This document shows, in pieces, positions 7,076 to 61,139 of a stretch of DNA of 64,000 bases. Made by a program: the position numbers and the translations under genes. The notes under the pieces are model-generated. The model was not told where the DNA came from, ran no database searches, and saw nothing but the letters and a program-made list of their open reading frames with translations. Numbering within the stretch: the stretch's first letter is position 1; each line of letters opens with the position of its first letter. Origin of the DNA: Eledone cirrhosa. Lineage: Eukaryota. The stretch covers positions 278,318,001 to 278,382,000 of the forward strand of contig OZ024741.1 in the NCBI GenBank assembly GCA_964016885.1, given 5' to 3'.

Positions 7076-7168
7076 ATATATATATATATATATAAATGTA
7101 TTATATATACATATATATAGATAATATATATGTTATATATATTAAATTATATATATATATATATATTT

Positions 7169-7597
7169 ATGGGATGAGGTGATAAAAGCCGACCTTACCC
7201 AATTACACCTCTCAAAGACAATGACACACGACCGTGACTTCTGGCGTCACGCAGTAATACAGAGTACCCGACCTCCCATGGGTACATGCTGAAGCATATA
7301 AACAATATGCCCCCACACCCCCCACCGCAAGGTGGTCGTGGAGGTGCCACGGCAAAAAAGCACCCAGCCCACACTGTAAAGTGGACGTGTAGGCGCCACG
7401 AAAAAGCACCCAGCACTCACTGTAAATGAGGTTGGTGTTAGGAAGGGCATCCAGCTGTAGAAATCAAGCCAGATCAGTTCCTGTATGAGCAAGGCATGGT
7501 CAGCCGACCAGACACTGCACACAACAGGACAACCCGTCTAACCCATGCTAGCGTGGAAGAACGGACGTAAAACGGTGATGATGATGATGATGATGAT
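7169..7597 (+). mobile_element. RTE subfamily C 3' end (ORF tail + structured 3' UTR)
   Basis: Reverse complement of ~62128-62540; (GAT)n tail. Confidence 0.88.
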
Positions 7598-8794
7598 TTA
7601 CATACACACACAGAGTTATACAGCCACATACATGTATACCCACCCTCACATAATCACACAAAGTATGGCCACTCTGACTCTGATATGGGAAAAACAAGAA
7701 CTAAAATAGAATGTTGCAGAATTCAGATTGGTAAATAACATAGTATTCCAGAGCAGCCTTTCTTTTATTGACTGTACTAATTGCAGAGGGGAATGTTTTA
7801 ATTAGTAATTCTGAATGGTAAATAAAGCAAAGGGACTATTAATTAGACATTTCTACTCCAATGACTTTCTAGAAATTCTTTGTACGTGTATTTATGAATA
7901 GACGTATATTAATCAAACGAAATAACTAACTGTAGCTAAGCTTAGTTTTGTTCTTTGTTTTTGTTTCTGTTATCTTTTTCTATTGTATTGTTTTTAAATT
8001 ATATATTATATATTTATAAATGTTGTGTTGTGTTGTGTTGTTGTGGGTGGAATCATGTCAGCCCTCACACACACATAACTGTGGTAGAGACGTGTATTTG
8101 TTATATAGGTTTTGTTTTTGGTGGAGGCATGTGGAAGACAGTAGGAAGATAGGAAGAATTTATGAAAATTTTAGTCAAATGATGATGATGATGATGGTGA
8201 TGATATATCATCATCACCATTGTTTAATAGATGTGAAACACTGATGATGATGGGGTGGAAGTGATAGCGGTGGTAGTGATGATGATGATGAGGGCGGTGG
8301 TGATGATGGTGGTGGTGGTGTAGGTGATGATGATGATGATGATGATGATGATGTTGATGTAGATGATGATATATAATATCGTCATCATCATCACCATCGT
8401 TTAATGTCTGCTTTCACTGGTAGCAAGGGTTGGACATGTCATCACAGATTGGTCAATACTCAAGCTGAATCTCTAACTTCTATGTATGCTGAGGGCCTGA
8501 CATACAATCCCATGCTCTACCGAGTGGATTTCATTGTGGCACCGACACTAGGGAAGTTTTCATGTCTTTGCTGTCGCTGAAGTGTATATGTAAATGTCTA
8601 ATGATGTTGATGATGTATTCCTCTCCTACCACTTCCCACATCTTTAATACACCTTCTCTGTGCAACCTATGCTTGTACAGAAAGCTGGACATTCTTTGCA
8701 ATATACTTCCAATCGCAACTCCCTCTTTTCAAGGCCACTCCCATGGCATGTCAATTGTTCACACACTCAAAGAGAAACGAGTGCCCTCTCTATG

Positions 8795-9292
8795 ATGGTA
8801 GTGCAGGTGCTACAACAAAAAAGCACCCAGTTCATCCCTGTAAGGTGGTTGTAATGGTGCCATGTCAAAAAGCACCCAATCCATCCCTGTAAGGTGGTAG
8901 TTCTGGTGCCATAACAATGAGCATCCAGTCAACTCCTGTAAAGTGGTTGTATTGGTGCCATGACATAGAGCACCCAGTCCACCCCTGTAAAGTGGCTATG
9001 CTGGTGCCATGACAATGAGCACCCAGTCCACCTCTGTAAGGTTGTTGTACTGGTGCCATGGCATAAAGCACCTAGTCTACCCTGTAAAGTGGTAGTGGTG
9101 ACTCCATGAAAAAAAGCTTCCAGTATATGCAGTAATGTGCTTGGCATTAGAAATGGTATCCAGCTGTAGAAAACCAAGCCAAGAGTGGATTGTATGAACA
9201 AGATCTATCACTTGACCTGTCTAGTCTCAACAACCTGTCTAACCGAAGCAGGTGTGGAAAACAGATTGAAAACGGTGATAAGGATGATGATC
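8795..9292 (+). mobile_element. Non-autonomous RTE-UTR derivative with ~6 tandem ~50-bp modules
   Basis: Repeats of GGTGCCA..AAAAGCACCCAGTCCA.CCTGTAAAGTGG, followed by a TTGGCATTAGAAATGGTATCCAGCTGTAGAAA motif and an RTE-like 3' tail. Confidence 0.75.
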
Positions 9293-10925: not shown

Positions 10926-11022
10926 TGTATATATATATGTATATGTAAATATATATGTATATGTAAATATATGTGAATATGTATATTGTAAATATGTGTA
11001 TATGTATATATATATATATATA

Positions 11023-13095
11023 CAGTCTCCCCCATGTCGACCCAATAGAGGGACCAGCAGTGTTAGTCGAGGGGAGTATAATAAGTAAGGCAATCAAGGA
11101 TATGAAGACAGGTAAGGCGGCTGGGCCTTCGGAAATAGTTGCTGAGATGCTGAAGGCATCTGGCACGGTGGGACACACCATGGTCACCCGCATAGTTAAC
11201 CAAGTCGTACAGAATGGGGTTGTTCCGAAGGACTGGCATAGCAGCATCATCGTTAACTGTTATAAGGGTAAAGGAGACGCCCTAGATAGGAGTAACTATA
11301 GAGGCATTAAATTAATCGACCAGGTCATGAAGGTCACAGAAAAAGTAATAGCGCAACTAATCAGAGAGACAATTGACCTAGATGAAATGCAGTTCGGGTT
11401 TGTGTCAGGCAAAAGTACCACAGACGCTCTTTTCATAGTACGACAACTACAGGAGAAGTACCTAGCTAAAGGTAAACCCCTCTACTTAGCTTTTGTCGAC
11501 TTGGAGAAAGCCTTCGACAGAGTCCCCCGCTCCATTATCTGGTGGGCTCTTAGAAAACTAGGCGTTGACGAATGGCTTGTGAGGGCTATACAAGCCATGT
11601 ATAAAGAAACAGTCAGCAAGGTTAGAATTAACAACGAATATAGTGAAGAGTTTAGCGTAAAAGTTGGCGTCCATCAGGGCTCTGTTCTCAGCCCCCTACT
11701 ATTTATTATTGCCCTTCAGGCTATAACAGAGGAGTTCAAGACAGGCTGCCCATGGGAACTCCTATACGCAGACGACCTGACACTCATAGCGGAATCAATG
11801 GCCGAGCTAGAGAAGAAATTCCAAACATGGAAGCACGGCCTAGAGTCAAAAGGACTTAAAATTAACCTGGCTAAGACCAAAGTTCTAGTTTGTAGGAAAG
11901 AAAACAAGGCGGCGGTCCCTTCTGGGAAATGGTCGTGCTCGGTGTGTAGGAAAGGCGTAGGTAGAAACTCCATTTTGTGTCCTAAATGCAAAGTATGGGT
12001 GCATAAAAGATGTAGTGGGATCACAGGTAAGCTAACTAAGAACATAGATTTTACATGTGGCCGGTGTTCTGGTGCAATAAGTAGCAGCAAGTGCCCACAC
12101 AATACTAGCTCTTTCAATTGCGCAGAGGGTTCTATAGAAATAGTGGACAGCTTCCGTTACCTGGGCGATAAAATCAGCAGTGGGGGAGGGTGCTCTGAAA
12201 GTACTGTAGCTAGAGTCAGAACTGGTTGGAAAAAGTTCAGAGAGCTTATACCACTATTAGCTGCTAAAGGGTTCTCCCTAAAAATGAAAGGCAGGTTGTA
12301 CGATGCCTGCATACGAACAGCAATGTTGCATGGCAGTGAGACCTGGGCATTGTGTGCAGAGGATATACGCAGACTAGAGAGGAACGAAGCTTGCATGCTC
12401 CGCTGGATGTGTAACAGTAATATACGTGAACGGCAAAGCATAAACGAACTAAGGAAAAAATTAGAGATAAGAGGGATCAGATGTTGTTTACTCGAGAGAA
12501 GGCTACGTTGGTATGGACACGTGATGCGCATGAAAGTCGATAGCTGTATAACAAAGTGCAGGGCAATAAAGATAGACGGTAGCCACGGAATAGGCAGACC
12601 TAGAAAAACCTGGGACGAGCTGATAAACTCCGACCTCACACACTTACACCTCTCCAAGACAATGTCACTGGACCGAGACCTTTGGCGGTACTCAGTAACA
12701 GAGAAGACCCGCCTTGCCAGTAGGCATCTCTAACAAAATACACCCCGTCCCACCACCACCACCCCCACCCCATCCACACCACCCCGTCCTATGTAAAGTT
12801 ATGTTGGTGCCGCGCCATCCGGGCCGAAACAAATGAGATCGTGTAGGTGTCACGACAAAAAAACACACAGTCCACGCTGTAAATGTGGCCGTGTAGGCAA
12901 CACGGTAAAAACCTCCCAGACCCACACTGTAAATGTGGTTGGTGTTAGGAAGGGCATCCAACTGTAGAAAACCTGCCAGACAGTCCTATGCGAGCAAGAC
13001 AATCACTCTTGCCTCAAGTGGGACTACCCCCGTCCAAACCCATGCAAGCGTGGAACACGGACGTTAAACGTTGATGATGATGATGATGATGATGA
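11023..13095 (+). mobile_element. RTE LINE subfamily B, 5'-truncated (RT + PHD-type finger + C-terminus + 3' UTR)
   Basis: Open frame with FVDLEKAFD, HQGSVLSP, YADD, CSVC..CPKC..HKRC..CGRC; (GAT)n tail; 5' end abuts (TA)n. Confidence 0.95.
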
Positions 13096-13253
13096 TATAT
13101 ATATATATATATATTAGGTATAGGATTATCCAAGATGTAGTAATGGTTAATTACTACACTGGATATGGTTGACGTACGGTAAGAGGTTACTCTACGAGTT
13201 ATGGAAGAATTGTTCAAGAAACTTAGTTCCTGATCCTTCAGTATTCCGGAGTG

Positions 13254-14811: not shown

Positions 14812-15039
14812 CTACTGTACATCTGTATACATATATGTATGTACGTATACATACTTATCATCATCATCATTTTACGTCTGCTTTTCCCTGCTTGCAAGGG
14901 TGGGATGGGATCTGATTCTGGCTTGATTTCTACAGCTGGATGCCCTTCCTAACACCAACCTCATTTACACTGGGTGCTTTTTTGCCGTGGCACCTCCACG
15001 ACCACTTTGCAGTGGAATGATATGGACCTCAGTCCCTAT

Positions 15040-15187
15040 CATCTCATTTCTACAGCTGAGTAAACTGGAGCAATGTGAAATAAAGTGTCTTGCTCAAGGA
15101 AACAACACATCACCCGGTCTGAGAATTGAACTCACAACCTTTCGATTGCAAAGCCAATGCTCTAACCACTAAGCCATGTGCCTTCAT
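15040..15187 (-). mobile_element. tRNA-derived SINE head
   Basis: Minus strand TGGCTTAGTGG (A box), GAGTTCAATTC (B box), then CCTTGAGCAAGACACTTTA...TGCTCCAGT; a related copy lies at ~45330-45595. Confidence 0.75.
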
Positions 15188-15695
15188 CATCATCATCATC
15201 ATCATCATCAACGTTTAACGTCCGTGTTCCACGCTTGCATGGGTTTGGACGGGGGTTTTCCCACTTGAGGCAAGAGTGATTGTCTTGCTCGCATAGGACT
15301 GTCTGGCGGGTTTTCTACAGCTGTATGCCCTTCCTAATACCAATCACATTTACAGTGTGGGGCTGGGAGGTTTTTACCGTGTTGCCTACACGGCCACATT
15401 ACAGCGTGGACTGTCTGGCGGGTTTTCTACAGCTGGATGCCCTTCCTAACACCAACCACATTTACAGTGTGGGGCTGGGAGGTTTTTACCGTGTTGCCTA
15501 CACGGCCACATTACAGCGTGGACTGTGTGTTTTTTTGTCGTGACACCTACACGATCTCATTTGTTTCGGCCTGGATGTTGTGGCACCAACATAACTTTAC
15601 ATTGAAAGGGGCGGTGTGGATGGGGTGGGGGTGGTGGGACGGGGGTGTGTTTTGTTAGAGATGCCTACTGACTGTAGTAGGTTTTACTTTGTATT
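15188..15695 (-). mobile_element. RTE subfamily B 3' UTR with internal ~115-bp duplication
   Basis: Reverse complement of ~12720-13090; the segment GACTGTCTGGCGGG...ACAGCGTG occurs twice. Confidence 0.85.
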
Positions 15696-16994: not shown

Positions 16995-19900
16995 GATAGG
17001 TACAGGTGTGGCTGTATGATAGGTAGAGGTGTGGTTGTATGATAGGTAGAGGTGTGGCTGTATGATAGGTAGAGGTATGGTTGTATGATAGGTAGAGGTG
17101 TGGTTGTATGATAGGTAGAGGTAGGGCTGTATGATAGGTAGAGGTAGGGCTGTATGATAGGTAGAGGTGTGGCTGTATGATAGGTACAGGTATGGCTGTA
17201 TGATAGATAGAGGTGTGGTTGTATGATAGGTAGAGGTGTGGCTGTATGATAGGTAGAGGTGTGGTTGTATGATAGGTAGAGGTGTGGCTGTATGATAGGT
17301 AGAGGTATGGTTGTATGATAGGTAGAGGTGTGGTTGTATGATAGGTAGAGGTAGGGCTGTATGATAGGTAGAGGTAGGGCTGTATGATAGGTAGAGGTGT
17401 GGCTGTATGATAGGTACAGGTATGGCTGTATGATAGATAGAGGTGTGGTTGTATGATAGGTAGAGGTGTGGTTGTATGATAGGTAGAGGTAGGGCTGTAT
17501 GATAGGTAGAGGTAGGGCTGTATGATAGGTACAGGTATGGCTGTATGATAGATAGAGGTGTGGTTGTATGATAGGTAGAGGTGTGGTTGTATGATAGGTA
17601 GAGGTATGGTTGTATGATAGGTAGTGGTAGGGCTGTATGATAGGTGAGGTAGGGCTGTATGATAGGTAGAGGTAGGGCTGTATGATAGGTACAGGTATGG
17701 CTGTATGATAGATAGAGATGTGGTTGTATGATAGGTAGAGGTATGGTTGTATGATAGGTAGAGGTATGATTGTATGATAGGTAGAGGTAGGGCTGTATGA
17801 TAGGTAGAGGTAGGGCTGTATGATAGGTAGAGGTAGGGCTGTATGATAGGTAGAGGTAGGGCTGCATGATAGGTAGAGGTATGGTTGTATGATAGGTAGA
17901 GGTATGGTTGTATGATAGGTAGAGGTATGGTTGTATGATAGGTAGAGGTAGGGCTGTATGATAGGTAGAGGTAGGGCTGTATGATAGGTAGAGGTAGGGC
18001 TGTATGATAGGTACAGGTATGGTTGTATGATAGGTAGAGGTGTGGTTGTATGATAGGTAGAGGTGTGGTTGTATGATAGGTAGAGGTGTGGTTGTATGAT
18101 AGGTAGAGGTGTGGTTGTATGATAGGTAGAGGTGTGGCTGTATGATAGGTAGAGGTGTGGTTGTATGATAGGGAGAGGTGTGGTTGTATGATAGGTAGAG
18201 GTGTGGCTGTATGATAGGTAGAGGTGTGGTTGTATGATAGGTAGAGGTAGGGCTGTATGATAGGTAGAGGTGTGGCTGTATGATAGGTAGAGGTGTGGCT
18301 GTATGATAGGTAGAGGTAGGGCTGTATGATAGGTAGAGGTAGGGCTGTATGATAGGTAGAGGTGTGGCTGTATGATAGGTAGAGGTGTGGCTGTATGATA
18401 GGTAGAGGTGTGGCTGTATGATAGGTAGAGGTGTGGTTGTATGATAGGTAGAGGTGTGGCTGTATGATAGGTAGAGGTGTGGCTGTATGATAGGTAGAGG
18501 TATGGCTGTATGATAGGTAGAGGTGTGGTTGTATGATAGGTACAGGTGTGGCTATATGATAGGTAGAGGTGTGGTTGTATGATAGGTAGAGGTAGGGCTG
18601 TATGATAGGTAGAGGTAGGGCTGTATGATAGGTAGAGGTGTGGTTGTATGATAGGTAGAGGTGTGGTTGTATGATAGGTAGAGGTGTGGTTGTATGATAG
18701 TTAGAGGTGTGGCTGTATGATAGGTAGAGGTAGGGTTGTATGATAGGTAGAGGTGTGGCTGTATGATAGGTAGAGGTAGGGCTGTATGATAGGTAGAGGT
18801 GTGGCTGTATGATAGGTAGAGGTGTGGCTGTATGATAGGTAGAGGTGTGGTTGTATGATAGGTAGAGGTGTGGCTGTATGATAGGTAGAGGTAGGGTTGT
18901 ATGATAGGTAGAGGTGTGGCTGTATGATAGGTACAGGTGTGGTTGTATGATAGGTAGAGGTGTGGCTGTATGATAGGTAGAGGTGTGGCTGTATGATAGG
19001 TAGAGGTAGCATTGTATGATAGGTAGAGGTGTGGTTGTATGATAGGTAGAGGTAGGGCTGTATGATAGGTACAGGTGTGGTTGTATGATAGGGAGAGGTG
19101 TGGTTGTATGATAGGTAGAGGTGTGGCTGTATGATAGGTAGAGGTAGGGCTGTATGATAGGTAGAGGTAGGGCTGTATGATAGGTAGAGGTAGGGCTGTA
19201 TGATAGGTACAGGTAGCGTTGTATGATAGGTAGAGGTGTGGCTGTATGATAGGTAGAGGTGTGGCTGTATGATAGGTACAGGTGTGGTTGTATGATAGGT
19301 AGAGGTGTGGTTGTATGATAGGTAGAGGTGTGGTTGTATGATAGGTAGAGGTGTGGTTGTATGATAGGTAGAGGTATGGTTGTATGATAGGTAGAGGTGT
19401 GGCTGTATGATAGGTAGAGGTGTGGCTGTATGATAGGTAGAGGTGTGGCTGTATGATAGGTAGAAGTGTGGTTGTATGATAGGTAGAGGTGTGGCTGTAT
19501 GATAGGTAGAGGTAGGGCTGTATGATAGGTAGAGGTAGGGCTGTATGATAGGTAGAGGTATGGCTGTATGATAGGTAGAGGTGTGGCTGTATGATAGGTA
19601 GAGGTGTGGCTGTATGATAGGTAGAGGTGTGGTTGTATGATAGGTAGAGGTGTGGTTGTATGATAGGTAGAGGTGTGGTTGTATGATAGGTAGAGGTATG
19701 GTTGTATGATAGGTAGAGGTGTGGCTGTATGATAGGTAGAGGTGTGGCTGTATGATAGGTAGACGTGTGGCTGTATGATAGGTAGAAGTGTGGTTGTATG
19801 ATAGGTAGAGGTAGGGCTGTATGATAGGGAGAGGTAGGGCTGTATGATAGGTAGAGGTGTGGCTGTATGATAGGTAGAAGTGTGGTTGTATGATAGGTAG

Positions 19901-22900
19901 AGGTGTGGCTGTATGATAGGTAGAGGTAGGGCTGTATGATAGGTAGAGGTGTGGCTGTATGATAGGTACAGGTATGGTTGTATGATAGGTACAGGTAGCG
20001 TTGTATGATAGGTAGAGGTGTGGCTGTATGATAGGTACAGGTAGCGTTGTATGATAGGTAGAGGTGTGGTTGTATGATAGGTAGAGGTAGGGCTGTATGA
20101 TAGGTACAGGTGTGGTTGTATGATAGCTAGAGGTGTGGTTGTATGATAGGTAGAGGTAGGGCTGTATGATAGGTAGAGGTGTGGCCGTATGATAGGTAGA
20201 GGTGTGGCTGTATGATAGGTAGAGGTAGGGCTGTATGATAGGTAGAGGTAGGGCTGTATGATAGGTAGAGGTAGGGCTGTATGATAGGTAGAGGTAGGGC
20301 TGTATGATAGGTAGAGGTGTGGTTGTATGATAGGTAGAGGTGTGGCTGTATGATAGGTAGAGGTATGGTTGTATGATAGGTAGAGGTGTGGTTGTATGAT
20401 AGGTAGAGGTGTGGCTGTATGATAGGTAGAGGTGTGGTTGTATGATAGGGAGAGGTGTGGTTGTATGATAGGTAGAGGTAGGGCTGTATGATAGGTAGAG
20501 GTAGGGCTGTATGATAGGTAGAGGTAGGGCTGTATGATAGGTACAGGTGTGGTTGTATGATAGGGAGAGGTGTGGTTGTATGATAGGGAGAGGTGTGGCT
20601 GTATGATAGGTACAGGTGTGGTTGTATGATAGGTAGAGGTAGGGCTGTATGATAGGTAGAGGTAGGGCTGTATGATAGGTACAGGTGTGGTTGTATGATA
20701 GGGAGAGGTGTGGTTGTATGATAGGTAGAGGTAGGGCTGTATGATAGGTAGAGGTAGGGCTGTATGATAGGTAGAGGTAGGGCTGTATGATAGGTACAGG
20801 TGTGGTTGTATGATAGGGAGAGGTGTGGTTGTATGATAGGGAGAGGTGTGGCTGTATGATAGGTACAGGTGTGGTTGTATGATAGGTAGAGGTGTGGTTG
20901 TATGATAGGGAGAGGTGTGGCTGTATGATAGGTACAGGTGTGGTTGTATGATAGGTAGAGGTAGGGCTGTATGATAGGTAGAGGTAGGGCTGTATGATAG
21001 GTACAGGTGTGGTTGTATGATAGGGAGAGGTGTGGTTGTATGATAGGTAGAGGTAGGGTTGTATGATAGGTACAGGTGTGGTTGTATGATAGGTAGAGGT
21101 GTGGTTGTATGATAGGTAGAGGTAGGGCTGTATGATAGGTACAGGTGTGGTTGTATGATAGGGAGAGGTGTGGTTGTATGATAGGGAGAGGTGTGGCTGT
21201 ATGATAGGTACAGGTGTGGTTGTATGATAGGTAGAGGTAGGGCTGTATGATAGGTAGAGGTAGGGCTGTATGATAGGTACAGGTGTGGTTGTATGATAGG
21301 TAGAGGTGTGGCTGTATGATAGGTACAGGTGTGGTTGTATGATAGGTAGAGGTGTGGTTGTATGATAGGTAGAGGTAGGGCTGTATGATAGGTAGAGGTG
21401 TGGCCGTATGATAGGTAGAGGTGTGGCTGTATGATAGGTAGAGGTAGGGCTGTATGATAGGTAGAGGTAGGGCTGTATGATAGGTAGAGGTAGGGCTGTA
21501 TGATAGGTAGAGGTAGGGCTGTATGATAGGTAGAGGTAGGGCTGTATGATAGGTAGAGGTGTGGTTGTATGATAGGTAGAGGTGTGGCTGTATGATAGGT
21601 AGAGGTATGGTTGTATGATAGGTAGAGGTGTGGTTGTATGATAGGTAGAGGTGTGGCTGTATGATAGGTAGAGGTGTGGTTGTATGATAGGTAGAGGTAG
21701 GGCTGTATGATAGGTACAGGTGTGGTTGTATGATAGGGAGAGGTGTGGTTGTATGATAGGGAGAGGTGTGGCTGTATGATAGGTACAGGTGTGGTTGTAT
21801 GATAGGTAGAGGTAGGGCTGTATGATAGGTAGAGGTAGGGCTGTATGATAGGTAGAGGTGTTGTTGTATGATAGGTAGAGGTAGGGCTGTATGATAGGGA
21901 GAGGTGTTGTTGTATGATAGGTAGAGGTAGGGCTGTATGATAGGTACAGGTGTGGTTGTATGATAGGGAGAGGTGTGGTTGTATGATAGGTAGAGGTGTG
22001 GTTGTATGATAGGTAGAGGTAGGGCTGTATGATAGGTAGAGGTAGGGCTGTATGATAGGGAGAGGTGTGGCTGTATGATAGGTAGAGGTGTGGTTGTATG
22101 ATAGGGAGAGGTGTGGTTGTATGATAGGTAGAGGTAGGGCTGTATGATAGGTAGAGGTAGGGCTGTATGATAGGTAGAGGTAGGGCTGTATGATAGGTAC
22201 AGGTGTGGTTGTATGATAGGGAGAGGTGTGGTTGTATGATAGGGAGAGGTGTGGCTGTATGATAGGTACAGGTGTGGTTGTATGATAGGTAGAGGTGTGG
22301 TTGTATGATAGGGAGAGGTGTGGCTGTATGATAGGTACAGGTGTGGTTGTATGATAGGTAGAGGTAGGGCTGTATGATAGGGAGAGGTGTTGTTGTATGA
22401 TAGGTAGAGGTAGGGCTGTATGATAGGTACAGGTGTGGTTGTATGATAGGGAGAGGTGTGGTTGTATGATAGGTAGAGGTAGGGCTGTATGATAGGTACA
22501 GGTGTGGTTGTATGATAGGTAGAGGTGTGGTTGTATGATAGGTAGAGGTAGGGCTGTATGATAGGTACAGGTGTGGTTGTATGATAGGGAGAGGTGTGGT
22601 TGTATGATAGGTAGAGGTAGGGCTGTATGATAGGTACAGGTGTGGTTGTATGATAGGGAGAGGTGTGGTTGTATGATAGGTAGAGGTATGGTTGTATGAT
22701 AGGTAGAGGTGTGGTTGTATGATAGGTAGAGGTAGGGCTGTATGATAGGTAGAGGTGTGGTTGTATGATAGGTAGAGGTGTGGCTGTATGATAGGGAGAG
22801 GTGTGGTTGTATGATAGGTAGAGGTGTGGTTGTATGATAGGTACAGGTGTGGTTGTATGATAGGTAGAGGTATGGTTGTATGATAGGTACAGGTATGGCT

Positions 22901-25900
22901 GTATGATAGGTAGAGGTGTGGTTGTATGATAGGTAGAGGTATGGTTGTATGATAGGTAGAGGTATGGTTGTATGATAGGGAGAGGTGTGGTTGTATGATA
23001 GGTAGAGGTAGGGCTGTATGATAGGTAGAGGTAGGGCTGTATGATAGGTAGAGGTAGGGCTGTATGATAGGTACAGGTGTGGTTGTATGATAGGGAGAGG
23101 TGTGGTTGTATGATAGGGAGAGGTGTGGCTGTATGATAGGTACAGGTGTGGTTGTATGATAGGTAGAGGTAGGGCTGTATGATAGGTAGAGGTAGGGCTG
23201 TATGATAGGTACAGGTGTGGTTGTATGATAGGGAGAGGTGTGGTTGTATGATAGGTAGAGGTAGGGCTGTATGATAGGTAGAGGTAGGGCTGTATGATAG
23301 GTAGAGGTAGGGCTGTATGATAGGTACAGGTGTGGTTGTATGATAGGGAGAGGTGTGGTTGTATGATAGGGAGAGGTGTGGCTGTATGATAGGTACAGGT
23401 GTGGTTGTATGATAGGTAGAGGTAGGGCTGTATGATAGGTAGAGGTAGGGCTGTATGATAGGTACAGGTGTGGTTGTATGATAAGGAGAGGTGTGGTTGT
23501 ATGATAGGTAGAGGTAGGGCTGTATGATAGGTAGAGGTAGGGCTGTATGATAGGTAGAGGTAGGGCTGTATGATAGGTACAGGTGTGGTTGTATGATAGG
23601 GAGAGGTGTGGTTGTATGATAGGGAGAGGTGTGGCTGTATGATAGGTACAGGTGTGGTTGTATGATAGGTAGAGGTAGGGCTGTATGATAGGTAGAGGTA
23701 GGGCTGTATGATAGGTACAGGTGTGGTTGTATGATAGGGAGAGGTGTGGTTGTATGATAGGTAGAGGTAGGGCTGTATGATAGGTACAGGTGTGGTTGTA
23801 TGATAGGTAGAGGTGTGGTTGTATGATAGGTAGAGGTAGGGCTGTATGATAGGTACAGGTGTGGTTGTATGATAGGGAGAGGTGTGGTTGTATGATAGGG
23901 AGAGGTGTGGCTGTATGATAGGTACAGGTGTGGTTGTATGATAGGTAGAGGTGTGGTTGTATGATAGGTAGAGGTAGGGCTGTATGATAGGTAGAGGTGT
24001 GGCCGTATGATAGGTAGAGGTGTGGCTGTATGATAGGTAGAGGTAGGGCTGTATGATAGGTAGAGGTAGGGCTGTATGATAGGTATAGGTAGGGCTGTAT
24101 GATAGGTAGAGGTAGGGCTGTATGATAGGTAGAGGTGTGGTTGTATGATAGGTAGAGGTGTGGCTGTATGATAGGTAGAGGTGTGGTTGTATGATAGGTA
24201 GAGGTGTGGTTGTATGATAGGTAGAGGTATGGTTGTATGATAGGTAGAGGTGTGGCTGTATGATAGGTAGAGGTGTGGCTGTATGATAGGTAGACGTGTG
24301 GCTGTATGATAGGTAGAGGTGTGGTTGTATGATAGGGAGAGGTGTGGCTGTATGATAGGTAGAGGTAGGGCTGTATGATAGGTAGAGGTAGGGCTGTATG
24401 ATAAGTAGAGGTAGGGCTGTATGATAGGTAGAGGTAGGGCTGTATGATAGGTAGAGGTAGGGCTGTATGATAGGTAGAGGTGTGGTTGTATGATAGGTAG
24501 AGGTGTGGCTGTATGATAGGTAGAGGTGTGGTTGTATGATAGGGAGAGGTGTGGCTGTATGATAGGTAGAGGTAGGGCTGTATGATAGGTAGAGGTAGGG
24601 CTGTATGATAAGTAGAGGTAGGGCTGTATGATAGGTAGAGGTAGGGCTGTATGATAGGTAGAGGTAGGGCAGTATGATAGGTAGAGGTGTGGTTGTATGA
24701 TAGGTAGAGGTGTGGCTGTATGATAGGTAGAGGTGTGGTTGTATGATAGGTAGAGGTGTGGTTGTATGATAGGTAGAGGTGTGGCTGTATGATAGGTAGA
24801 GGTGTGGTTGTATGATAGGGAGAGGTGTGGTTGTATGATAGGTAGAGGTGTGGTTGTATGATAGGGAGAGGTGTGGTTGTATGATAGGTAGAGGTGTGGT
24901 TGTATGATAGGTAGAGGTGTGGTTGTATGATAGGTAGAGGTGTGGTTGTATGATAGGTAGAGGTGTGGCTGTATGATAGGTAGAGGTGTGGCTCTATGAT
25001 AGGTAGACGTGTGGCTGTATGATAGGTAGAAGTGTGGTTGTATGATAGGTAGAGGTAGGGCTGTATGATAGGTAGAGGTAGGGCTGTATGATAGGTAGAG
25101 GTAGGGCTGTATGATAGGTAGAGGTAGGGCTGTATGATAGGTACAGGTATGGCTGTATGATAGGTAGAGGTGTGGTTGTATGATAGGTAGAGGTATGGTT
25201 GTATGATAGGTAGAGGTGTGGCTGTATGATAGGTAGAGGTGTGGCTGTATGATAGGTAGAAGTGTGGTTGTATGATAGGTAGAGGTAGGGCTGTATGATA
25301 GGTAGAGGTAGGGCTGTATGATAGGTACAGGTGTGGTTGTATGATAGAGAGAGGTGTGGTTGTATGATAGGGAGAGGTGTGGTTGTATGATAGGTAGAGG
25401 TGTGGTTGTATGATAGGTAGAGGTGTGGTTGTATGATAGGTAGAGGTGTGGTTGTATGATAGGTAGAGGTGTGGCTGTATGATAGGTAGAGGTGTGGCTC
25501 TATGATAGGTAGACGTGTGGCTGTATGATAGGTAGAAGTGTGGTTGTATGATAGGTAGAGGTAGGGCTGTATGATAGGTAGAGGTAGGGCTGTATGATAG
25601 GTAGAGGTAGGGCTGTATGATAGGTAGAGGTAGGGCTGTATGATAGGTACAGGTATGGCTGTATGATAGGTAGAGGTGTGGTTGTATGATAGGTAGAGGT
25701 ATGGTTGTATGATAGGTAGAGGTGTGGCTGTATGATAGGTAGAGGTGTGGCTGTATGATAGGTAGACGTGTGGCTGTATGATAGGTAGAAGTGTGGTTGT
25801 ATGATAGGTAGAGGTAGGGCTGTGTGATAGGTAGAGGTAGGGCTGTATGATAGGTAGAGGTGTGGCTGTATGATAGGTAGAGGTGTGGCTGTATGATAGG

Positions 25901-28900
25901 TACAGGTAGCGTTGTATGATAGGTAGAGGTGTGGTTGTATGATAGGTAGAGGTAGGGCTGTATGATAGGTACAGGTGTGGTTGTATGATAGGGAGAGGTG
26001 TTGTTGTATGATAGGTAGAGGTAGGGCTGTATGATAGGTACAGGTGTGGTTGTATGATAGGGAGAGGTGTGGTTGTATGATAGGGAGAGGTGTGGCTGTA
26101 TGATAGGTACAGGTGTGGTTGTATGATAGGTAGAGGTGTGGTTGTATGATAGGTAGAGGTAGGGCTGTATGATAGGTAGAGGTGTGGCCGTATGATAGGT
26201 AGAGGTGTGGCTGTATGATAGGTAGAGGTGTGGTTGTATGATAGGGAGAGGTGTGGCTGTATGATAGGTAGAGGTAGGGCTGTATGATAGGTAGAGGTAG
26301 GGCTGTATGATAGGTAGAGGTAGGGCTGTATGATAGGTAGAGGTAGGGCTGTATGATAGGTAGAGGTAGGGCTGTATGATAGGTAGAGGTGTGGTTGTAT
26401 GATAGGTAGAGGTGTGGCTATATGATAGGTAGAGGTATGGTTGTATGATAGGTAGAGGTGTGGCTGTATGATAGGTAGAGGTATGGTTGTATGATAGGTA
26501 GAGGTGTGGTTGTATGATAGGTAGAGGTGTGGTTGTATGATAGGTACAGGTGTGGTTGTATGATAGGTAGAGGTATGGTTGTATGATAGGTACAGGTATG
26601 GCTGTATGATAGGTAGAGGTGTGGTTGTATGATAGGTAGAGGTATGGTTGTATGATAGGTAGAGGTATGGTTGTATGATAGGGAGAGGTGTGGTTGTATG
26701 ATAGGTAGAGGTGTGGCTGTATGATAGGTAGAGGTGTGGCTGTATGATAGGTAGAGGTAGGGCTGTATGATAGGTACAGGTGTGGCTGTATGATAGGTAG
26801 AGGTAGGGCTGTATGATAGGTAGAGGTGTGGCTGTATGATCGGTAGAGGTGTGGCTGTATGATAGGTAGAGGTGTGGCTGTATGATAGGTAGAGGTAGGG
26901 CTGTATGATAGGTAGAGGTGTGGCTGTATGATAGGTACAGGTGTGGTTGTATGATTGGTAGAGGTGTGGTTGTATGATAGGGTGAGGTGTGGCTGTATGA
27001 TAGGTACAGGTGTGGTTGTATGATAGGTAGAGGTGTGGTTGTATGATAGGTAGAGGTAGGGCTGTATGATAGGTAGAGGTAGGGCTGTATGATAGGTACA
27101 GGTGTGGTTGTATGATAGGGAGAGGTGTGGTTGTATGATAGGTAGAGGTAGGGCTGTATGATAGGTACAGGTGTGGTTGTATGATAGGTAGAGGTGTGGT
27201 TGTATGATAGGGTGAGGTGTGGCTGTATGATAGGTACAGGTGTGGTTGTATGATAGGTACAGGTGTGGTTGTATGATAGGTAGAGGTAGGGCTGTATGAT
27301 AGGTACAGGTGTGGTTGTATGATAGGTAGAGGTGTGGTTGTATGATAGGTAGAGGTAGGGCTGTATGATAGGTACAGGTGTGGTTGTATGATAGGTAGAG
27401 GTGTGGTTGTATGATAGGTAGAGGTAGGGCTGTATGATAGGTACAGGTGTGGTTGTATGATAGGGAGAGGTGTGGTTGTATGATAGGTAGAGGTATGGTT
27501 GTATGATAGGTAGAGGTATGGTTGTATGATAGGGAGAGGTGTGGTTGTATGATAGGTAGAGGTGTGGCTGTATGATAGGTAGAGGTGTGGCTGTATGATA
27601 GGTAGAGGTAGGGCTGTATGATAGGTACAGGTGTGGCTGTATGATAGGTAGAGGTAGGGCTGTATGATAGGTAGAGGTGTGGCTGTATGATAGGTACAGG
27701 TAGCGTTGTATGATAGGTAGAGGTAGGGCTGTATGATAGGTAGAGGTGTGGCTGTATGATAGGTAGAGGTGTGGCTGTATGATAGGTAGAGGTGTGGCTG
27801 TATGATAGGTAGAGGTATGGTTGTATGATAGGTACAGGTAGGGCTGTATGATAGGTAGAGGTGTGGTTGTATGATAGGTAGAGGTGTTGTTGTATGATAG
27901 GTAGAGGTATGGTTGTATGATAGGGAGAGGTGTGGTTGTATGATAGGTAGAGGTGTTGTTGTATGATAGGTAGAGGTGTGGCTGTATGATAGGTAGAGGT
28001 GTGGTTGTATGATAGGTAGAGGTGTGGTTGTATGATAGGTAGAGGTGTGGTTGTATGATAGGTAGAGGTAGGGCTGTATGATAGGTACAGGTATGGCTGT
28101 ATGATAGGTAGAGGTGTGGTTGTATGATAGGTAGAGGTATGGTTGTATGATAGGTAGAGGTATGGTTGTATGATAGGGAGAGGTGTGGTTGTATGATAGG
28201 TAGAGGTGTGGCTGTATGATAGGTAGAGGTGTGGCTGTATGATAGGTAGAGGTAGGGCTGTATGATAGGTACAGGTGTGGCTGTATGATAGGTAGAGGTA
28301 GGGCTGTATGATAGGTAGAGGTGTGGCTGTATGATAGGTAGAGGTGTGGCTGTATGATAGATAGAGGTGTGGCTGTATGATAGGTAGAGGTAGGGCTGTA
28401 TGATAGGTAGAGGTGTGGCTGTATGATAGGTAGAGGTGTGGCTGTATGATAGGTAGAGGTGTGGTTGTATGATAGGTAGAGGTGTGGTTGTATGATAGGT
28501 AGAGGTAGGGTTGTATGATAGGTAGAGGTAGGGCTGTATGATAGGTAGAGGTGTGGTTGTATGATAGGTAGAGGTGTGGTTGTATGATAGGTAGAGGTGT
28601 GGTTGTATGATAGGTAGAGGTGTGGTTGTATGATAGGTAGAGGTGTGGTTGTATGATAGGTAGAGGTGTGGCTGTATGATAGGTAGAGGTGTGGCTGTAT
28701 GATAGGTAGAGGTGTGGTTGTATGATAGGTAGAGGTGTGGTTGTATGATAGGTAGAGGTAGGGTTGTATGATAGGTAGAGGTAGGGCTGTATGATAGGTA
28801 GAGGTGTGGCTGTATGATAGATAGAGGTGTGGCTGTATGATAGGTAGAGGTAGGGCTGTATGATAGGTAGAGGTGTGGCTGTATGATAGGTAGAGGTGTG

Positions 28901-30520
28901 GCTGTATGATAGGTAGAAGTGTGGTTGTATGATAGGTAGAGGTGTGGCTGTATGATAGGTAGAGGTATGGTTGTATGATAGGTAGAGGTGTGGTTGTATG
29001 ATAGGTAGAGGTAGGGTTGTATGATAGGTAGAGGTAGGGCTGTATGATAGGTAGAGGTATGGCTGTATGATAGGTAGAGGTATGGTTGTATGATAGGTAG
29101 AGGTATGGTTGTATGATAGGTAGAGGTATGGTTGTATGATAGGGAGAGGTGTGGTTGTATGATAGGTAGAGGTAGGGCTGTATGATAGGTAGAGGTGTGG
29201 TTGTATGATAGGTAGAGGTAGGGCTGTATGATAGGTAGAGGTGTGGCTGTATGATAGGCAGAGGTGTGGTTGTATGATAGGTAGAGGTGTGGTTGTATGA
29301 TAGGTAGAGGTGTGGCTGTATGATAGGTAGAGGTGTGGCTGTATGATAGGTAGAGGTGTGGCTGTATGATAGGTAGAGGTGTGGTTGTATGATAGGTAGA
29401 GGTAGGGCTGTATGATAGGTAGAGGTGTGGTTGTATGATAGGTAGAGGTGTGGTTGTATGATAGGTAGAGGTGTGGTTGTATGATAGGTAGAGGTAGGGC
29501 TGTATGATAGGTAGAGGTGTGGTTGTATGATAGGTAGAGGTGTGGTTGTATGATAGGTACAGGTGTGGTTGTATGATAGGTAGAGGTGTGGTTGTATGAT
29601 AGGTACAGGTGTGGTTGTATGATAGGTAGAGGTGTGGTTGTATGATAGGTAGAGGTATGGTTGTATGATAGGTAGAGGTGTGGTTGTATGATAGGTAGAG
29701 GTAGGGCTGTATGATAGGTAGAGGTGTTGTTGTATGATAGGTACAGGTGTGGCTGTATGATATGTAGAGGTGTGGCTGTATGATAGGTAGAGGTGTGGTT
29801 GTATGATAGGTAGAGGTGTGGCTGTATGATAGGTAGAGGTATGGTTGTATGATAGGTAGAGGTGTGGCTGTATGATAGGGAGAGGTGTGGTTGTATGATA
29901 GGTAGAGGTAGGGCTGTATGATAGGTAGAGGTGTGGTTGTATGATAGGTAGAGGTGTGGTTGTATGATAGGTAGAGGTGTGGCTGTATGATAGGTAGAAG
30001 TGTGGTTGTATGATAGGTAGAGGTAGGGCTGTATGATAGGTAGAGGTAGGGCTGTATGATAGGTACAGGTGTGGTTGTATGATAGAGAGAGGTATGGTTG
30101 TATGATAGGTACAGGTGTGGTTGTATGATAGGTAGAGGTAGGGCTGTATGATAGGTAGAGGTGTTGTTGTATGATAGGTACAGGTGTGGCTGTATGATAT
30201 GTAGAGGTGTGGCTGTATGATAGGTAGAGGTGTGGTTGTATGATAGGTAGAGGTGTGGCTGTATGATAGGTAGAGGTATGGTTGTATGATAGGTAGAGGT
30301 GTGGCTGTATGATAGGGAGAGGTGTGGTTGTATGATAGGTAGAGGTAGGGCTGTATGATAGGTAGAGGTGTGGTTGTATGATAGGTAGAGGTGTGGCTGT
30401 ATGATAGGTAGAGGTATGGTTGTATGATAGGTAGAGGTAGGGCTGTATGATAGGTACAGGTAGGGCTGCATGATAGGTAGAGATAGGGCTGTATGATAGG
30501 TAGAGGTATGGATAGCTGTA
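16995..30520. repeat. 23-bp satellite (GATAGGTAGAGGTGTGGCTGTAT and variants), ~590 copies, 13.5 kb
   Basis: Essentially uninterrupted 23-bp periodicity; the 23-aa periodic ORFs on the minus strand correspond to three units. Confidence 0.98.
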
Positions 30521-30808: not shown

Positions 30809-31753
30809 AGTCTACAATGTGTATATTTACCTGTCTAGTCTACAATATGTATATTTATCTGTCTAGTCTACAATGTGTATATTTACCTGTCTAGTCTACA
30901 ATGTGTATATTTACCTGTCTAGTCTACAATATGTATATTTACCTGTCTAGTCTACAATGTGTATATTTACCTGTCTAGTCTACAATGTGTATATTTACCT
31001 GTCTAGTCTACAATGTGTATATTTACCTGTCTAGTCTACAATATGTATATTTACCTGTCTAGTCTACAATGTGTATATTTACCTGTCTAGTCTACAATAT
31101 GTATATTTACCTGTCTAGTCTACAATGTGTATATTTACCTGTCTAGTCTACAATGTGTATATTTACCTGTCTAGTCTACAATATGTATATTTACCTGTCT
31201 AGTCTACAATGTGTATATTTACCTGTCTAGTCTACAATGTGTATATTTACCTGTCTAGTCTACAATGTGTATATTTACCTGTCTAGTCTACAATGTGTAT
31301 ATTTACCTGTCTAGTCTACAATATGTATATTTACCTGTCTAGTCTACAATGTGTATATTTACCTGTCTAGTCTACAATATGTATATTTACCTGTCTAGTC
31401 TACAATGTGTATATTTACCTGTCTAGTCTACAATGTGTATATTTACCTGTCTAGTCTACAATATGTATATTTACCTGTCTAGTCTACAATGTGTATATTT
31501 ACCTGTCTAGTCTACAATATGTATATTTACCTGTCTAGTCTACAATGTGTATATTTACCTGTCTAGTCTACAATGTGTATATTTACCTGTCTAGTCTACA
31601 ATGTGTATATTTACCTGTCTAGTCTACAATATGTATATTTACCTGTCTAGTCTACAATATGTATATTTACCTGTCTAGTCTACAATGTGTATTTTTACCT
31701 GTCTAGTCTACAATATGTATAATTACCTGTCTAGTCTACAATGTGTATATTTA
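30809..31753. repeat. 28-bp minisatellite (AGTCTACAATRTGTATATTTACCTGTCT), ~34 copies
   Basis: Direct tandem periodicity with one dimorphic A/G position. Confidence 0.97.
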
Positions 31754-35974: not shown

Positions 35975-38449
35975 AAAAGCGCCCAGTCCATCCTGTAAGA
36001 TGGTTGAGTTGGTGCCACAACACAAAAGTGTCCAGTCCATCCTGTAAGATGGTTGAGTTGGTGCCACAACACAAAAGTGACAAGTCCATCCTGTAAGATG
36101 GACGTGTTGGTGCCACAACACAAAAGTGTCCAGTCCATCCTGTAAGATGGTTGTGTTGGTGCCACAACACAAAAGTGCCCAGTCCATCCTGTAAGATGGT
36201 TGTGTTGGTGCCACAACACAAAAGTGCCCAGTCCATCCTGTAAGATGGTTGTGTTGGTGCCACAACACAAAAGTGCCCAGTCCATCCTGTAAGATGGTTG
36301 TGCTGGTGCCACAACACAAAAGTGCCCAGTCCATCCTGTAAGATGGTTGTGCTGGTGCCACAACACAAAAGTGCCCAGTCCATCCTGTAAGATGGTTGTG
36401 CTGGTGCCACAACACAAAAGTGCCCAGTCCATCCTGTAAGATGGTTGTGCTGGTGCCACAACACAAAAGTGCCCAGTCCATCCTGTAAGATGGTTGTGCT
36501 GGTGCCACAACACAAAAGTGCCCAGTCCATCCTGTAAGTTGGTTGTGCTGGTGCCACAACACAAAAGTGCCCAGTCCATCCTGTAAGATGATTGTGCTGG
36601 TGCCACAACACAAAAGTGCCCAGTCCATCCTGTAAGATGGTTGTGTTGGTGCCACAACACAAAAGTGCCCAGTCCATCCTGTAAGATGATTGTGCTGGTG
36701 CCACAACACAAAAGTGCCCAGTCCATCCTGTAAGATGGTTGTGCTGGTGCCACAACACAAAAGTGCCCAGTCCATCCTGTAAGATGATTGTGCTGGTGCC
36801 ACAACACAAAAGTGCCCAGTCCATCCTGTAAGATGGTTGTGCTGGTGCTACAACACAAAAGTGCCCAGTCCATCCTGTAAGATGGTTGAGTTGATGCCAC
36901 AACACAAAAGTGCCCAGTCCATCCTGTAAGATGGTTGTGCTAGTGCCACAACACAAAAGTGCCCAGTCCATCCTGTAAGATGGTTGTGCTGGTGCCACAA
37001 CACAAAAGTGCCCAGTCCATCCTGTAAGATGGTTGAGTTGATGCCACAACACAAAAGTGCCCAGTCCATCCTGTAAGATGGTTGTGCTGGTGCCACAACA
37101 CAAAAGTGCCCAGTACATCCTGTAAGATGGTTGAGTTGATGCCACAACACAAAAGTGCCCAGTCCATCCTGTAAGATGGTTGTGCTGGTGCCACAACACA
37201 AAAGTGCCCAGTCCATCCTGTAAGATGGTTGTGTTGGTGCCACAACACAAAAGTGCCCAGTCCATCCTGTAAGATGGTTGAGTTGATGCCACAACACAAA
37301 AGTGCCCAGTCCATCCTGTAAGATGGTTGTGCTGGTGCCACAACACAAAAGTGCCCAGTCCATCCTGTAAGATGGTTGAGTTGATGCCACAACACAAAAG
37401 TGCCCAGTCCATCCTGTAAGATGGTTGTGCTGGTGCCACAACACAAAAGTGCCCAGTCCATCCTGTAAGATGGTTGTGTTGGTGCCACAACACAAAAGTG
37501 CCCAGTCCATCCTGTAAGATGATTGTGCTGGTGCCACAACACAAAAGTGCCCAGTCCATCCTGTAAGATGGTTGTGCTGGTGCCACAACACAAAAGTGCC
37601 CAGTCCATCCTGTAAGATGGTTGTGCTGGTGCCACAACACAAAAGTGCCCAGTCCATCCTGTAAGATGGTTGAGTTGATGCCACAACACAAAAGTGTCCA
37701 GTACATCCTGTAAGATGGTTGAGTTGATGCCACAACACAAAAGTGCCCAGTCCATCCTGTAAGATGGTTGTGCTGGTGCCACAACACAAAAGTGCCCAGT
37801 CCATCCTGTAAGATGGTTGTGTTGGTGCCACAACACAAAAGTGCCCAGTCCATCCTGTAAGATGATTGTGCTGGTGCCACAACACAAAAGTGCCCAGTCC
37901 ATCCTGTAAGATGGTTGTGCTGGTGCCACAACACAAAAGTGCCCAGTCCATCCTGTAAGATGGTTGTGCTGGTGCCACAACACAAAAGTGCCCAGTCCAT
38001 CCTGTAAGATGGTTGTGTTGGTGCCACAACACAAAAGTGCCCAGTCCATCCTGTAAGATGATTGTGCTGGTGCCACAACACAAAAGTGCCCAGTCCATCC
38101 TGTAAGATGGTTGTGCTGGTGCCACAACACAAAAGTGCCCAGTCCATCCTGTAAGATGGTTGTGCTGGTGCCACAACACAAAAGTGCCCAGTCCATCCTG
38201 TAAGATGATTGTGCTGGTGCCACAACACAAAAGTGCCCAGTCCATCCTGTAAGATGGTTGTGCTGGTGCCACAACACAAAAGTGCCCAGTCCATCCTGTA
38301 AGATGGTTGAGTTGATGCCACAACACAAAAGTGCCCAGTCCATCCTGTAAGATGATTGTGCTGGTGCCACAACACAAAAGTGCCCAGTCCATCCTGTAAG
38401 ATGGTTGAGTTGATGCCACAACACAAAAGTGCCCAGTCCATCCTGTAAG
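35975..38449 (+). repeat. 49-bp minisatellite (GTGCCCAGTCCATCCTGTAAGATGGTTGTGCTGGTGCCACAACACAAAA), ~50 copies, derived from the RTE UTR module
   Basis: Direct periodicity; the unit aligns with GGTGCCAC..AAAAGCACCCAGTCCAC.CTGTAAAGTGG in the RTE UTRs; followed by the degenerate rest of the element and a (GAT)n tail at ~38470-38640. Confidence 0.95.
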
Positions 38450-60800: not shown

Positions 60801-61110
60801 TCACCTCTTGCACGCAGCACACATCCACCTGCCTTCTCTCCAGCATCTCCGCTATTTCAGCAGATCTACCTCTGAGAGTGCCAACATTAAGTGTTGCAAC
60901 TCTGAGATGCGACGTCTTCATATTTTCCTATGCTGTTTTGTTGCTGTGCTGATAAGCTTTTTGGCATTGATACACTGGTTGGATGCCCTTCCTAACACCA
61001 GCGCCACTTTACAGCATGGACTGGGTGCTTTTATTTGTGCCACCAGCACTAGAGAGGATGTCTTACTAGACTCAAGGGCCCTCTCTACCCCTCCATTTTA
61101 CAGCATGGTC
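57826..61110 (-). mobile_element. Apparently full-length RTE LINE subfamily A
   Basis: ~190-nt 5' UTR, one 1022-aa ORF, (ATG)n tail directly after the stop codon. Confidence 0.95.
57853..60921 (-). CDS. RTE ORF: APE endonuclease + reverse transcriptase + PHD-type C4HC3 finger
   Basis: ATLNV, VQEVRW, YAPQ, GDFNGH, SQIDF, QHRLV (APE); DLEKAFD, HQGSVL, YADD (RT); CSIC..CTQC..HKRC..CSRC; RRLRWYGH, GRPRKTW. Confidence 0.95.
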   Translation of the reverse strand: MKTSHLRVATLNVGTLRGRSAEIAEMLERRQVDVCCVQEVRWRGASARLVVGKCLSYKLFWVGKDDGLGGVGIFLAEKWINKTIEVVRVSNRIIKLRLVVGRRLLTIISVYAPQAGLGKDEKDCFYEQLLQTTTMTEDGDIVMLAGDFNGHVGQLQDDYTGVHGGHGYGSRNEEGVRLLEFCDASTLTICNTNFQKPANHLITYKSGEHISQIDFLLVRQQDRQIVSNTKAYPGEECTPQHRLVVSDISVSKRWNETYRKVWRRKVWKLKDLSLKYKFRKALQDVYDEKEDDLETYDIDNNWKFLRDNLLQATDETCGWSRAPTRQRVTWWWNSTVDKAIRDKRLAWKAWKKGGSREEYTATKREARRQVYLARREAESRRFANVLRREDQRRAVFHIARQCVNANQDVVGDKCVRDDAGVLSVTNDQKKEACKCHYERLMNVENEWEREKLPLVDPTEGPAIEIDEYRVQEAIREMKNGKAAGPSGIVAEMLKASGDVGTKLVARIINQAIYGGVIPKDWCSSILINCYKGKGDALERSNYRGIKLIDQVMKVAERILAQLIRERVKLDEMQFGFVPGKSTTDALFLVRQMQERFLEKNKPLYLAFVDLEKAFDRVPRSVIWWSLRKLGVEEWLVRTVQTLYRGTLSKVRVGMEFSEEFQIQVGVHQGSVLILLLFIIVLQAITEEFKTGCPWELLYADDLALIAESVEELENKFRLWKQQLEARGLRVNLAKTKVLMSRKEDKTLIPSGKWPCSICRKGTGINSIKCTQCRSWVHKRCSGIAGKLTGREKYVCSRCTGKLDSRSRTDRHIFQMREGAIEVVDSFRYLGDQISMGGGCSEAIVSRIRTGWKKFRELLPLLTKKGFSLRTKGRLYDACVRSAMLHGSETWAATAEDMRRLERNEASMLRWMCSVNVRERPSINVLREKLCLRGIECSVRERRLRWYGHVMRMEDDRWVKKCQEMPVEGRRGRGRPRKTWAKVVRTDLRSLKLTVEMTRDRDEWRDAVLNKTRPTLASREKRT

Positions 61111-61139
61111 ATTAAAAAAAATAACAAAAAAAAAAAAAA

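Follow-up and report, generated by a model that had tools for sequence, protein, structure and literature searches.

RTE elements of the window and the module they carry

The DNA analysed is a 64,000-nt stretch of the Eledone cirrhosa genome (hereafter, the window), and the feature of interest lies on its forward strand, behind the coding end of a 5′-truncated LINE of the RTE type, lineage C. The combination of AT microsatellites, CORE-type SINEs and RTE-type LINEs would by itself suggest a cephalopod source. The 3′ end of the ORF, as read from the sequence, occupies 7170–7292 and closes with a stop codon at 7290–7292. It is followed, in order, by two copies of a module whose unit length is 46–50 bases (C1, 7336–7384, and C2, 7386–7430), a conserved stem at 7432–7454 that carries a 20-nt motif (7435–7454), a spacer, and a terminal stem-loop with a trinucleotide microsatellite tail (7533–7597), which is the usual RTE 3′ end and stands apart from the module.

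Five of the twelve frames scanned against Pfam are pieces of one kind of LINE, in which a reverse transcriptase (RT) is followed by a PHD finger; the longest, at 57853–60927 on the reverse strand, additionally has an endonuclease, so that Exo_endo_phos, RVT_1 and PHD domains lie in a single 1024-aa frame. Both marks of RTE elements, an AP endonuclease followed by RT and a terminal stem-loop followed by a short microsatellite tail, are present, and we provisionally assign the host element to the RTE clade from its ORF architecture and from the naming in an earlier note on this sequence. A sister copy of lineage C (63570–62422) matches RTE protein. An RT tree built from this genome's copies alone, with no outgroup, gave three groups that correspond to the lineages A, B and C of that note. 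In all three, the PHD finger is directly behind the Pfam RT domain, within the RT-thumb region (aa 757–800 of the 57853–60927 frame).

Lineage A is represented by an element with an intact ORF for endonuclease, RT and PHD finger (57826–61049, reverse strand; start codon at 60921). Its 5′ UTR contains module A1 (61049–61004) and the motif (61000–60979), and the module is absent from its 3′ side, where this lineage has almost no UTR. The lineage B copy (10967–13096, forward strand) encodes RT and the PHD finger, stops at 12733 and continues with modules B1 (12839–12888) and B2 (12889–12938), the motif (12939–12961) and a tail. A B subfamily (window 15290–15530, reverse strand; also L032, L261 and L353) has a 112-nt internal duplication consisting of half of B1, B2 and the motif. 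The forward strand also has an older copy of the 3′-UTR type with about six decayed module units (8796–9290) and a minisatellite of about 50 tandem 49-nt units (35975–38449). A non-coding, tRNA-type SINE, family D (14870–15184, reverse strand), likewise carries module and motif: behind its head, in which ARAGORN finds no tRNA, come a CORE domain, a C-derived module with the motif, and an A-type tail. Judged from sequence, the module of this family is taken from C and its tail from A; an A-type tail closes 42 of the 61 matches to the SINE body, whereas three examples keep the C tail. Elsewhere in the window, a satellite with a 23-nt unit and strong GC skew (16995–30511; 13.5 kb, about 588 copies) adjoins a 28-nt array at 30809–31753.

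Exact matches to four patterns numbered 155,802, 43,145, 10,903 and 1,360 in the 3.0-Gb assembly. A profile search found 306 module copies in 864 kb and none in reversed sequence; a larger sample of 1.66 Mb, half of it from regions chosen for repeat density, yielded 633 copies, of which 488 could be parsed into fixed columns. A UTR holds one to four module copies, and the units also expand to minisatellites, with many decayed tandem arrays.

The module had been described as shared by RTE 5′ and 3′ UTRs, and both placements do occur, but lineage by lineage and never at both ends of one: each autonomous lineage has the module and its downstream motif in one UTR only, 5′ in A and 3′ in B and C. 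It lies behind the ORF in 49 of 50 B, 30 of 31 C and none of 10 A C-termini (and 5 of 18 unclassified ones). Of seven A-type N-termini, five have it ahead of the ORF and two are truncated within the UTR; it also precedes the ORF in one older relative, and in none of 15 N-termini of the B and C types. In lineage A, the module is 60–340 nt upstream of the start codon, and the 580 nt ahead of that codon contain 14 ATG triplets. Young A copies have lost most of the upstream module; in the window (61050–61700, reverse strand) a new low-complexity 5′ region meets the half-deleted upstream module at a T-run junction. Upstream of the module, older 5′ UTRs of this lineage (L227:250–520; L239) have repeats that look like the conserved RTE domain known from the literature, and in L239 a spacer hairpin and the module are duplicated as a 95-nt unit. 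The terminal stem-loop is found in all lineages, separate from and downstream of the module.

Predicted fold and evidence for pairing

C1 is predicted to form two consecutive H-type pseudoknots: in the first, stem 1 (7337–7341 with 7347–7351) has a loop that pairs as stem 2 (7343–7346 with 7361–7364) across an A-rich linker (7353–7359), and in the second, stem 3 (7365–7367 with 7374–7376) is likewise combined with stem 4 (7369–7372 with 7381–7384). All stems named in the earlier note were present where it had drawn them, by coordinates that we counted by hand. The tandem fold could be drawn in five of seven module types, against 0–2 of 400 dinucleotide shuffles of each. Copy by copy, the descriptor fitted 147 of 181 B, 33 of 46 D, 5 of 7 A and 30 of 74 C modules, 5 of 24 old copies and 67 of 156 array units; only 0–4 reverse complements per class fitted, so the fit is specific to the sense strand.

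The fold is not equally intact everywhere. The same drawing had been proposed for C2, and its stems can indeed be found, but it fails the descriptor because of a C-A mismatch in stem 2 that is fixed in the lineage; its stem 4, too, ends in an A-G mismatch. B1 has lost one pair of stem 2, and stem 2 of B2 pairs only in a shifted register. C2 and B2, with their broken or shifted stem 2, are both highly amplified types. A further pairing suggested for lineage B, between its AGG and a downstream CCU, is not conserved: base 12974 is changed in about 40% of the contig depth.

The module had also been called covarying. Double changes are real in hand-picked copies, but the term overstates the signal, which under a tree-based null is confined to 1 of 19 pairs. 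Among 12 hand-picked copies from the window, both sides had changed in 9 of 17 pairs, compared with 0 of 500 shuffles, a count to be read with the caveats that the aligner splits stem 4 between two registers and that the copies are kin. When 249 unique copies were tested in the manner of R-scape against a tree-based null, the single passing pair was in the middle of stem 4 (A-U to U-A), with E 0.014 over the proposed pairs only and 0.63 over all 861 pairs; when the copies were anchored more crudely, none passed. In the tail control of this test, for which the pair list was one column off, the sole variable true pair ranked first of 136. Stem 2 gave no covariation signal within this genome (p 0.5–0.7), and stem 3 is invariant across the lineage types. 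A double change of the middle pair of stem 3 was seen 40 times among 155,802 copies genome-wide, against 19 expected from the 1,583 and 1,859 single changes; the 40 are scattered across unrelated old copies, the excess is explained by the mixed ages of the copies, and the two-by-two count revealed no compensated stem 3 subfamily.

Changes fixed between lineages gave a modest excess: 78 of 95 Watson–Crick pairs were kept versus 73.5 with redrawn bases (p 0.014), or 82 versus 77.6 with G-U included (p 0.04), due to stems 1 and 4 and with no contribution from stem 2. In 29 old loci there was no covariation of the CpG arm, and only the last pair of stem 4 was associated (p 0.0016, a value that ignores the tree and depends on the register). 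Contigs of three sequencing runs from three organisms gave no usable cross-species covariation, two of them covering the region piecewise.

The stability of the nested fold is unremarkable (z −0.05 to −1.6), and nested folding of C1 and B2 gives two hairpins that are stems 1 and 4. Since these two stems alone could be a pair of hairpins, and since covariation is weak, this genome by itself is no proof of the knots. All four complementary stems, however, are kept through five diverged lineage types, and we consider the module real and, on this structural model, probably knotted. Together with the Rfam search below, the fold test bears out the description of it as a structured retrotransposon RNA element outside the Rfam families. 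The strongest support for the knotted fold is the comparison with CORE SINEs, which the earlier note did not contain.

The CORE domain and other comparable RNAs

A Meta-domain identity of the SINE D body was considered and rejected, the PMC4824008 supplement matching CORE instead; by eye against that supplement, the CORE domain spans 15103–15043 on the reverse strand. In its 5′ half, a hairpin exposes a G-rich loop that pairs with bases just ahead of a 3-bp stem; its 3′ half consists of that stem, a loop, a short A-rich link and the partner of the loop, as in the second knot of the module. One descriptor served for both structures: of the modules it fitted 4 of 5, and of CORE copies taken singly 5 of 9, with 0–9 of 500 shuffles (the SINE D slice used in this test ends ahead of stem 4). 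Among 30 CORE loci of this genome, 12 fitted and none did as reverse complement; of five foreign single copies two fitted, and one of these two has the central pair of stem 3 inverted.

Read by eye and without phylogenetic correction, the 11 CORE-bearing SINE consensuses of PMC5804259 accommodate knot 1 in 11 cases and knot 2 in 9. Knot 1 has a single stem 1 mismatch in Pami and relies on ambiguous bases in Peci and Lipo; knot 2 does not fit Ante and Elco, and Styp has one U-U. In the same reading, to which we added other published consensuses, stem 3 is C-G/A-U/G-C in Lipo, MIR, BivaCORE-SINE2 and this genome, C-G/U-A/G-C in five crustaceans, C-G/U-A/C-G in Pami and C-G/A-U/C-G in Aply, such that two positions show all four Watson–Crick combinations. 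Stem 2 has double changes at several positions (C-G to A-U in Aply and squid SINEs; A-U to G-C in Gayu; G-C or G-U to A-U in bivalves and this genome), and stems 1 and 4 change freely in sequence while keeping their pairing. Alligator MIR and bivalve and squid SINEs also fit, the squid and BivaCORE-SINE1 types for knot 1 only. As far as these sequences can be judged by eye, then, published CORE-SINE consensuses from alligator, molluscs, crustaceans, sea star and coral fit the two-pseudoknot topology, with compensatory changes in four stems. This pseudoknot fold is a reading proposed here as a model and not a statement of PMC4824008, PMC5804259 or PMC5786205 in the parts consulted. It draws also on loci L425–L454, L058 and L165. 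In the Ceph-SINEs of the PMC5786205 supplement, the start of the conserved RTE 5′-UTR domain, after CORE knot 1, can be drawn as a tiny pseudoknot with an A-rich link.

The module shares with CORE (MIR, OR1/OR2 and BivaCORE-SINE2; PMC4824008, PMC5804259, PMC5786205) a G-rich hairpin loop that pairs just ahead of a 3-bp stem, whose own loop pairs past a short A-rich link; stem and link are identical in several members, and both structures occur in retroposon RNA, including SINE D of the window. It differs in its shorter loops (1–2 against 3–4 nt, and 6–7 against 9 nt), in an A-rich rather than pyrimidine-rich linker, in the sequences of stems 1 and 2, and in its occurrence in LINE UTRs and in tandem. 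A CORE domain is expected directly behind a tRNA-derived SINE head, but the module is found in LINE UTRs and, in SINE D, behind a separate CORE domain; in the topology proposed here, which is not a published criterion, the two agree. Local alignment of module and CORE was significant for C2 only (p 0.002 and 0.016 in two of three CORE copies), on the CORE 3′ half, with p 0.03–0.9 for the other modules, and it could also reflect exchange with an abundant SINE. Run on 27 loci and on 15103–15043, a covariance model of the module detected neither CORE domains nor twisters. Given these misses and an alignment limited to C2, we describe the module as shaped like CORE and do not class it as a member.

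The 20-nt motif has a wider distribution. Other animals have it as well, both in the 5′ UTRs of RTE elements and in shortened RTE derivatives, with quite different sequence upstream; in such derivatives (L370, L381, L383) no more than about 60 nt separate it from the tail. In metagenomes it occurs in about 4,400 stretches (106 of the 120 listed are one SINE-like type). A further 32 sequences labelled as prokaryote contain it, and many of these resemble animal repeat DNA; viral contigs gave chance matches or none, and the motif is absent from the part of the PMC5786205 supplement consulted. Other structures lie upstream of the motif in the foreign elements: L146 (250–300, read on the minus strand) has a knot like the CORE 3′ half. 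A hairpin in L146, L370 and L362 recalls the P4/J4/2 region of HDV-like ribozymes, though Rfam matches none of the three. Pairing of the motif with host 18S rRNA was considered and rejected, a 9-nt complement being reached by 83 of 1000 shuffles.

Other known systems resemble the module less closely. The tobamovirus upstream pseudoknot domain is likewise a series of small, directly adjoining H-type pseudoknots, placed in the 3′ UTR of an RNA that lacks poly(A), but the module matches neither its Rfam families nor its conserved loop sequence and has no tRNA-like end, which leaves an analogy of shape. HDV-like ribozymes are nested double pseudoknots (P1–P4) with a catalytic C in J4/2; by eye, the knots of the module are serial rather than nested, and P1 and P4 could not be placed. 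In the parts of Kojima 2018 (PMC5786205) consulted, a piece of an RTE 5′ UTR is joined to an RTE tail, is sometimes duplicated and has been captured by a tRNA-CORE SINE, much as here. The segments described there differ in sequence, here the piece has also moved to the 3′ UTR of autonomous LINEs, and those parts propose no structure for the conserved RTE 5′-UTR segments.

Candidate functions

We tentatively favour, at somewhat under an even chance, a model in which the module acts in cis within RTE LINEs of the PHD-finger kind: it is predicted to form two stacked H-type pseudoknots, on which a host factor, either of translation or an RNA-binding one, would dock regardless of where the module lies. 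A host-factor site is suggested by its presence in either UTR, in one to four copies, and in non-coding carriers, and by its look-alike in the SINEs of several LINE clades. The four stems are predicted to stack without spacer bases, and tandem copies to form one rod. For the LINE, whose RNA has a microsatellite end and, in lineage A, many AUGs ahead of the start codon, the module may help in ribosome loading or in keeping the RNA stable; a SINE transcript with this fold would be held at the sites of LINE protein synthesis. The 3′ placement in B and C could have arisen if the former 3′ end gave way to a short RTE derivative made of a 5′-UTR piece and a tail, the 5′ copy being lost afterwards. 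In lineage C the final codons (7266–7280) look like one half, the 5′ arm, of the terminal stem-loop, as might be left if a derivative of this kind had been joined on to give the present 3′ end. In tobamoviral RNA, tandem pseudoknots act as translation enhancers. Reports on RTE and R2 elements credit their structured leaders with supporting translation (PMC6765202 and PMC8501958). We found no direct sign of ribosome contact, the 18S complement not being significant, and the low count of covarying pairs, the state of stem 2 in C2 and B2 and the loss of the module in young A copies all count against docking.

The ligand might instead be the element's own protein, with module and motif acting in cis, wherever placed, in RNP assembly or template capture. 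Retention in one UTR per lineage, in SINE D and near the tail of foreign short derivatives would suit this alternative, as would the fact that bipartite RTE derivatives are common (PMC5786205), yet we regard it as unlikely: SINE D combines a C module with an A tail although the A and C proteins are ~65% identical, and the CORE look-alike accompanies several LINE clades. RT recognition was one of the earlier suggestions; a terminal stem-loop usually serves that purpose, and all lineages already have one downstream of the module, which also counts against a site for the element's own protein. With a similarly low probability, function resides in the 20-nt motif alone, at the DNA or RNA level, and the module is a hitchhiking remnant of an ancestral structure, expanded by slippage and forming at most two hairpins. 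The weak covariation, the fixed mismatches, the decayed arrays and the foreign motifs with unrelated upstream sequence would all be expected from such a remnant, and PMC5786205 suggests transcription-factor binding for conserved RTE UTR pieces; on the other hand, a promoter-type motif would be of little use within a 3′ UTR, the four stems have survived in five lineage types, and the same topology covaries, by eye, in CORE SINEs.

Two further activities that had been proposed, nuclease resistance and self-cleavage, are disfavoured by where the copies begin. Compact pseudoknots can block exonucleases, and a module just ahead of the ORF, as in A, could stabilise the RNA in an xrRNA-like manner. 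Behind the ORF, as in B and C, such a block should leave short templates that start at the module, but the 5′ ends of 77 B and 41 C matches are scattered, with no pile-up at its edge (13 B ends at one place are the internal duplication, and four others are alignment breaks), and we rate this function as improbable. A new or twister-derived ribozyme is less probable still. What speaks for it is that four foreign loci have a twister-P1 match, below the gathering score, ending directly ahead of the motif (L143, E 1.3e-9; L387, 4.3e-6, with an RTE ORF starting ~200 nt beyond the motif; L388, 0.0016; L135, 0.086), in the slot that knot 2 occupies here. The same four outscore nearly all of 15 others against the last 25 nt of the module, which bear a slight likeness to the 3′ half of twister (p 0.006–0.2, not independent), and knot 2 is loosely like P4/L4/UAAA. 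Twister-P1 is known at RTE 5′ ends (RF03160; Perere-3, PMC8501958). The module, however, is not at the 5′ end of the element, the 5′ ends of copies do not mark a cleavage site in it, and it has no P1, P2 or cleavage-site loop; Rfam gave nothing at the gathering cut-off in the window and nothing at E up to 10 in 7150–7620, in agreement with the earlier failure to match a known ribozyme core. True twisters do turn up elsewhere in the genome. Moreover, 21 of 30 A loci retain a long shared 5′ region past the module, and B and C copies span ORF to tail through it; these upstream regions and the scattered 5′ ends make both self-cleavage and a 5′ nuclease block unlikely. A second, distant RTE-like family of this genome (L455–L460, 24–28% identical), by contrast, begins sharply at a compact twister-P1 in all six loci seen.

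Returning to the docking model, we can extend it, with less confidence than the model itself, to both structures: it is possible that the CORE domain, whose conservation extends from corals to vertebrates, is a tandem double pseudoknot, that the module is its compact, LINE-borne counterpart, and that the shared fold docks on the host translation machinery from either end of a transcript. CORE SINEs use several LINE partners (PMC11481361), so the ligand would be host-derived rather than LINE-specific. In the literature searched, from which most subscription papers were missing, we found no description of the module or of a CORE pseudoknot.

The module belongs among the cis-elements of retroposons, and its tie to the CORE domain is both unexpected and open to test. 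Conservation of SINE body domains over hundreds of millions of years has been called a major enigma (PMC5804259). A four-stem CORE fold with natural compensatory pairs turns that conservation into a directly testable question, and a LINE with the same fold, movable from 5′ to 3′ UTR, offers a coding context for an assay; the double-pseudoknot fit of CORE deserves its own covariation study whatever the origin of the module. If true, the proposed relationship would bear on the proposal (PMC5786205) that SINE bodies derive from LINE 5′ UTRs, and would explain a repeat present at well over 150,000 loci, together with many minisatellites, in this genome.
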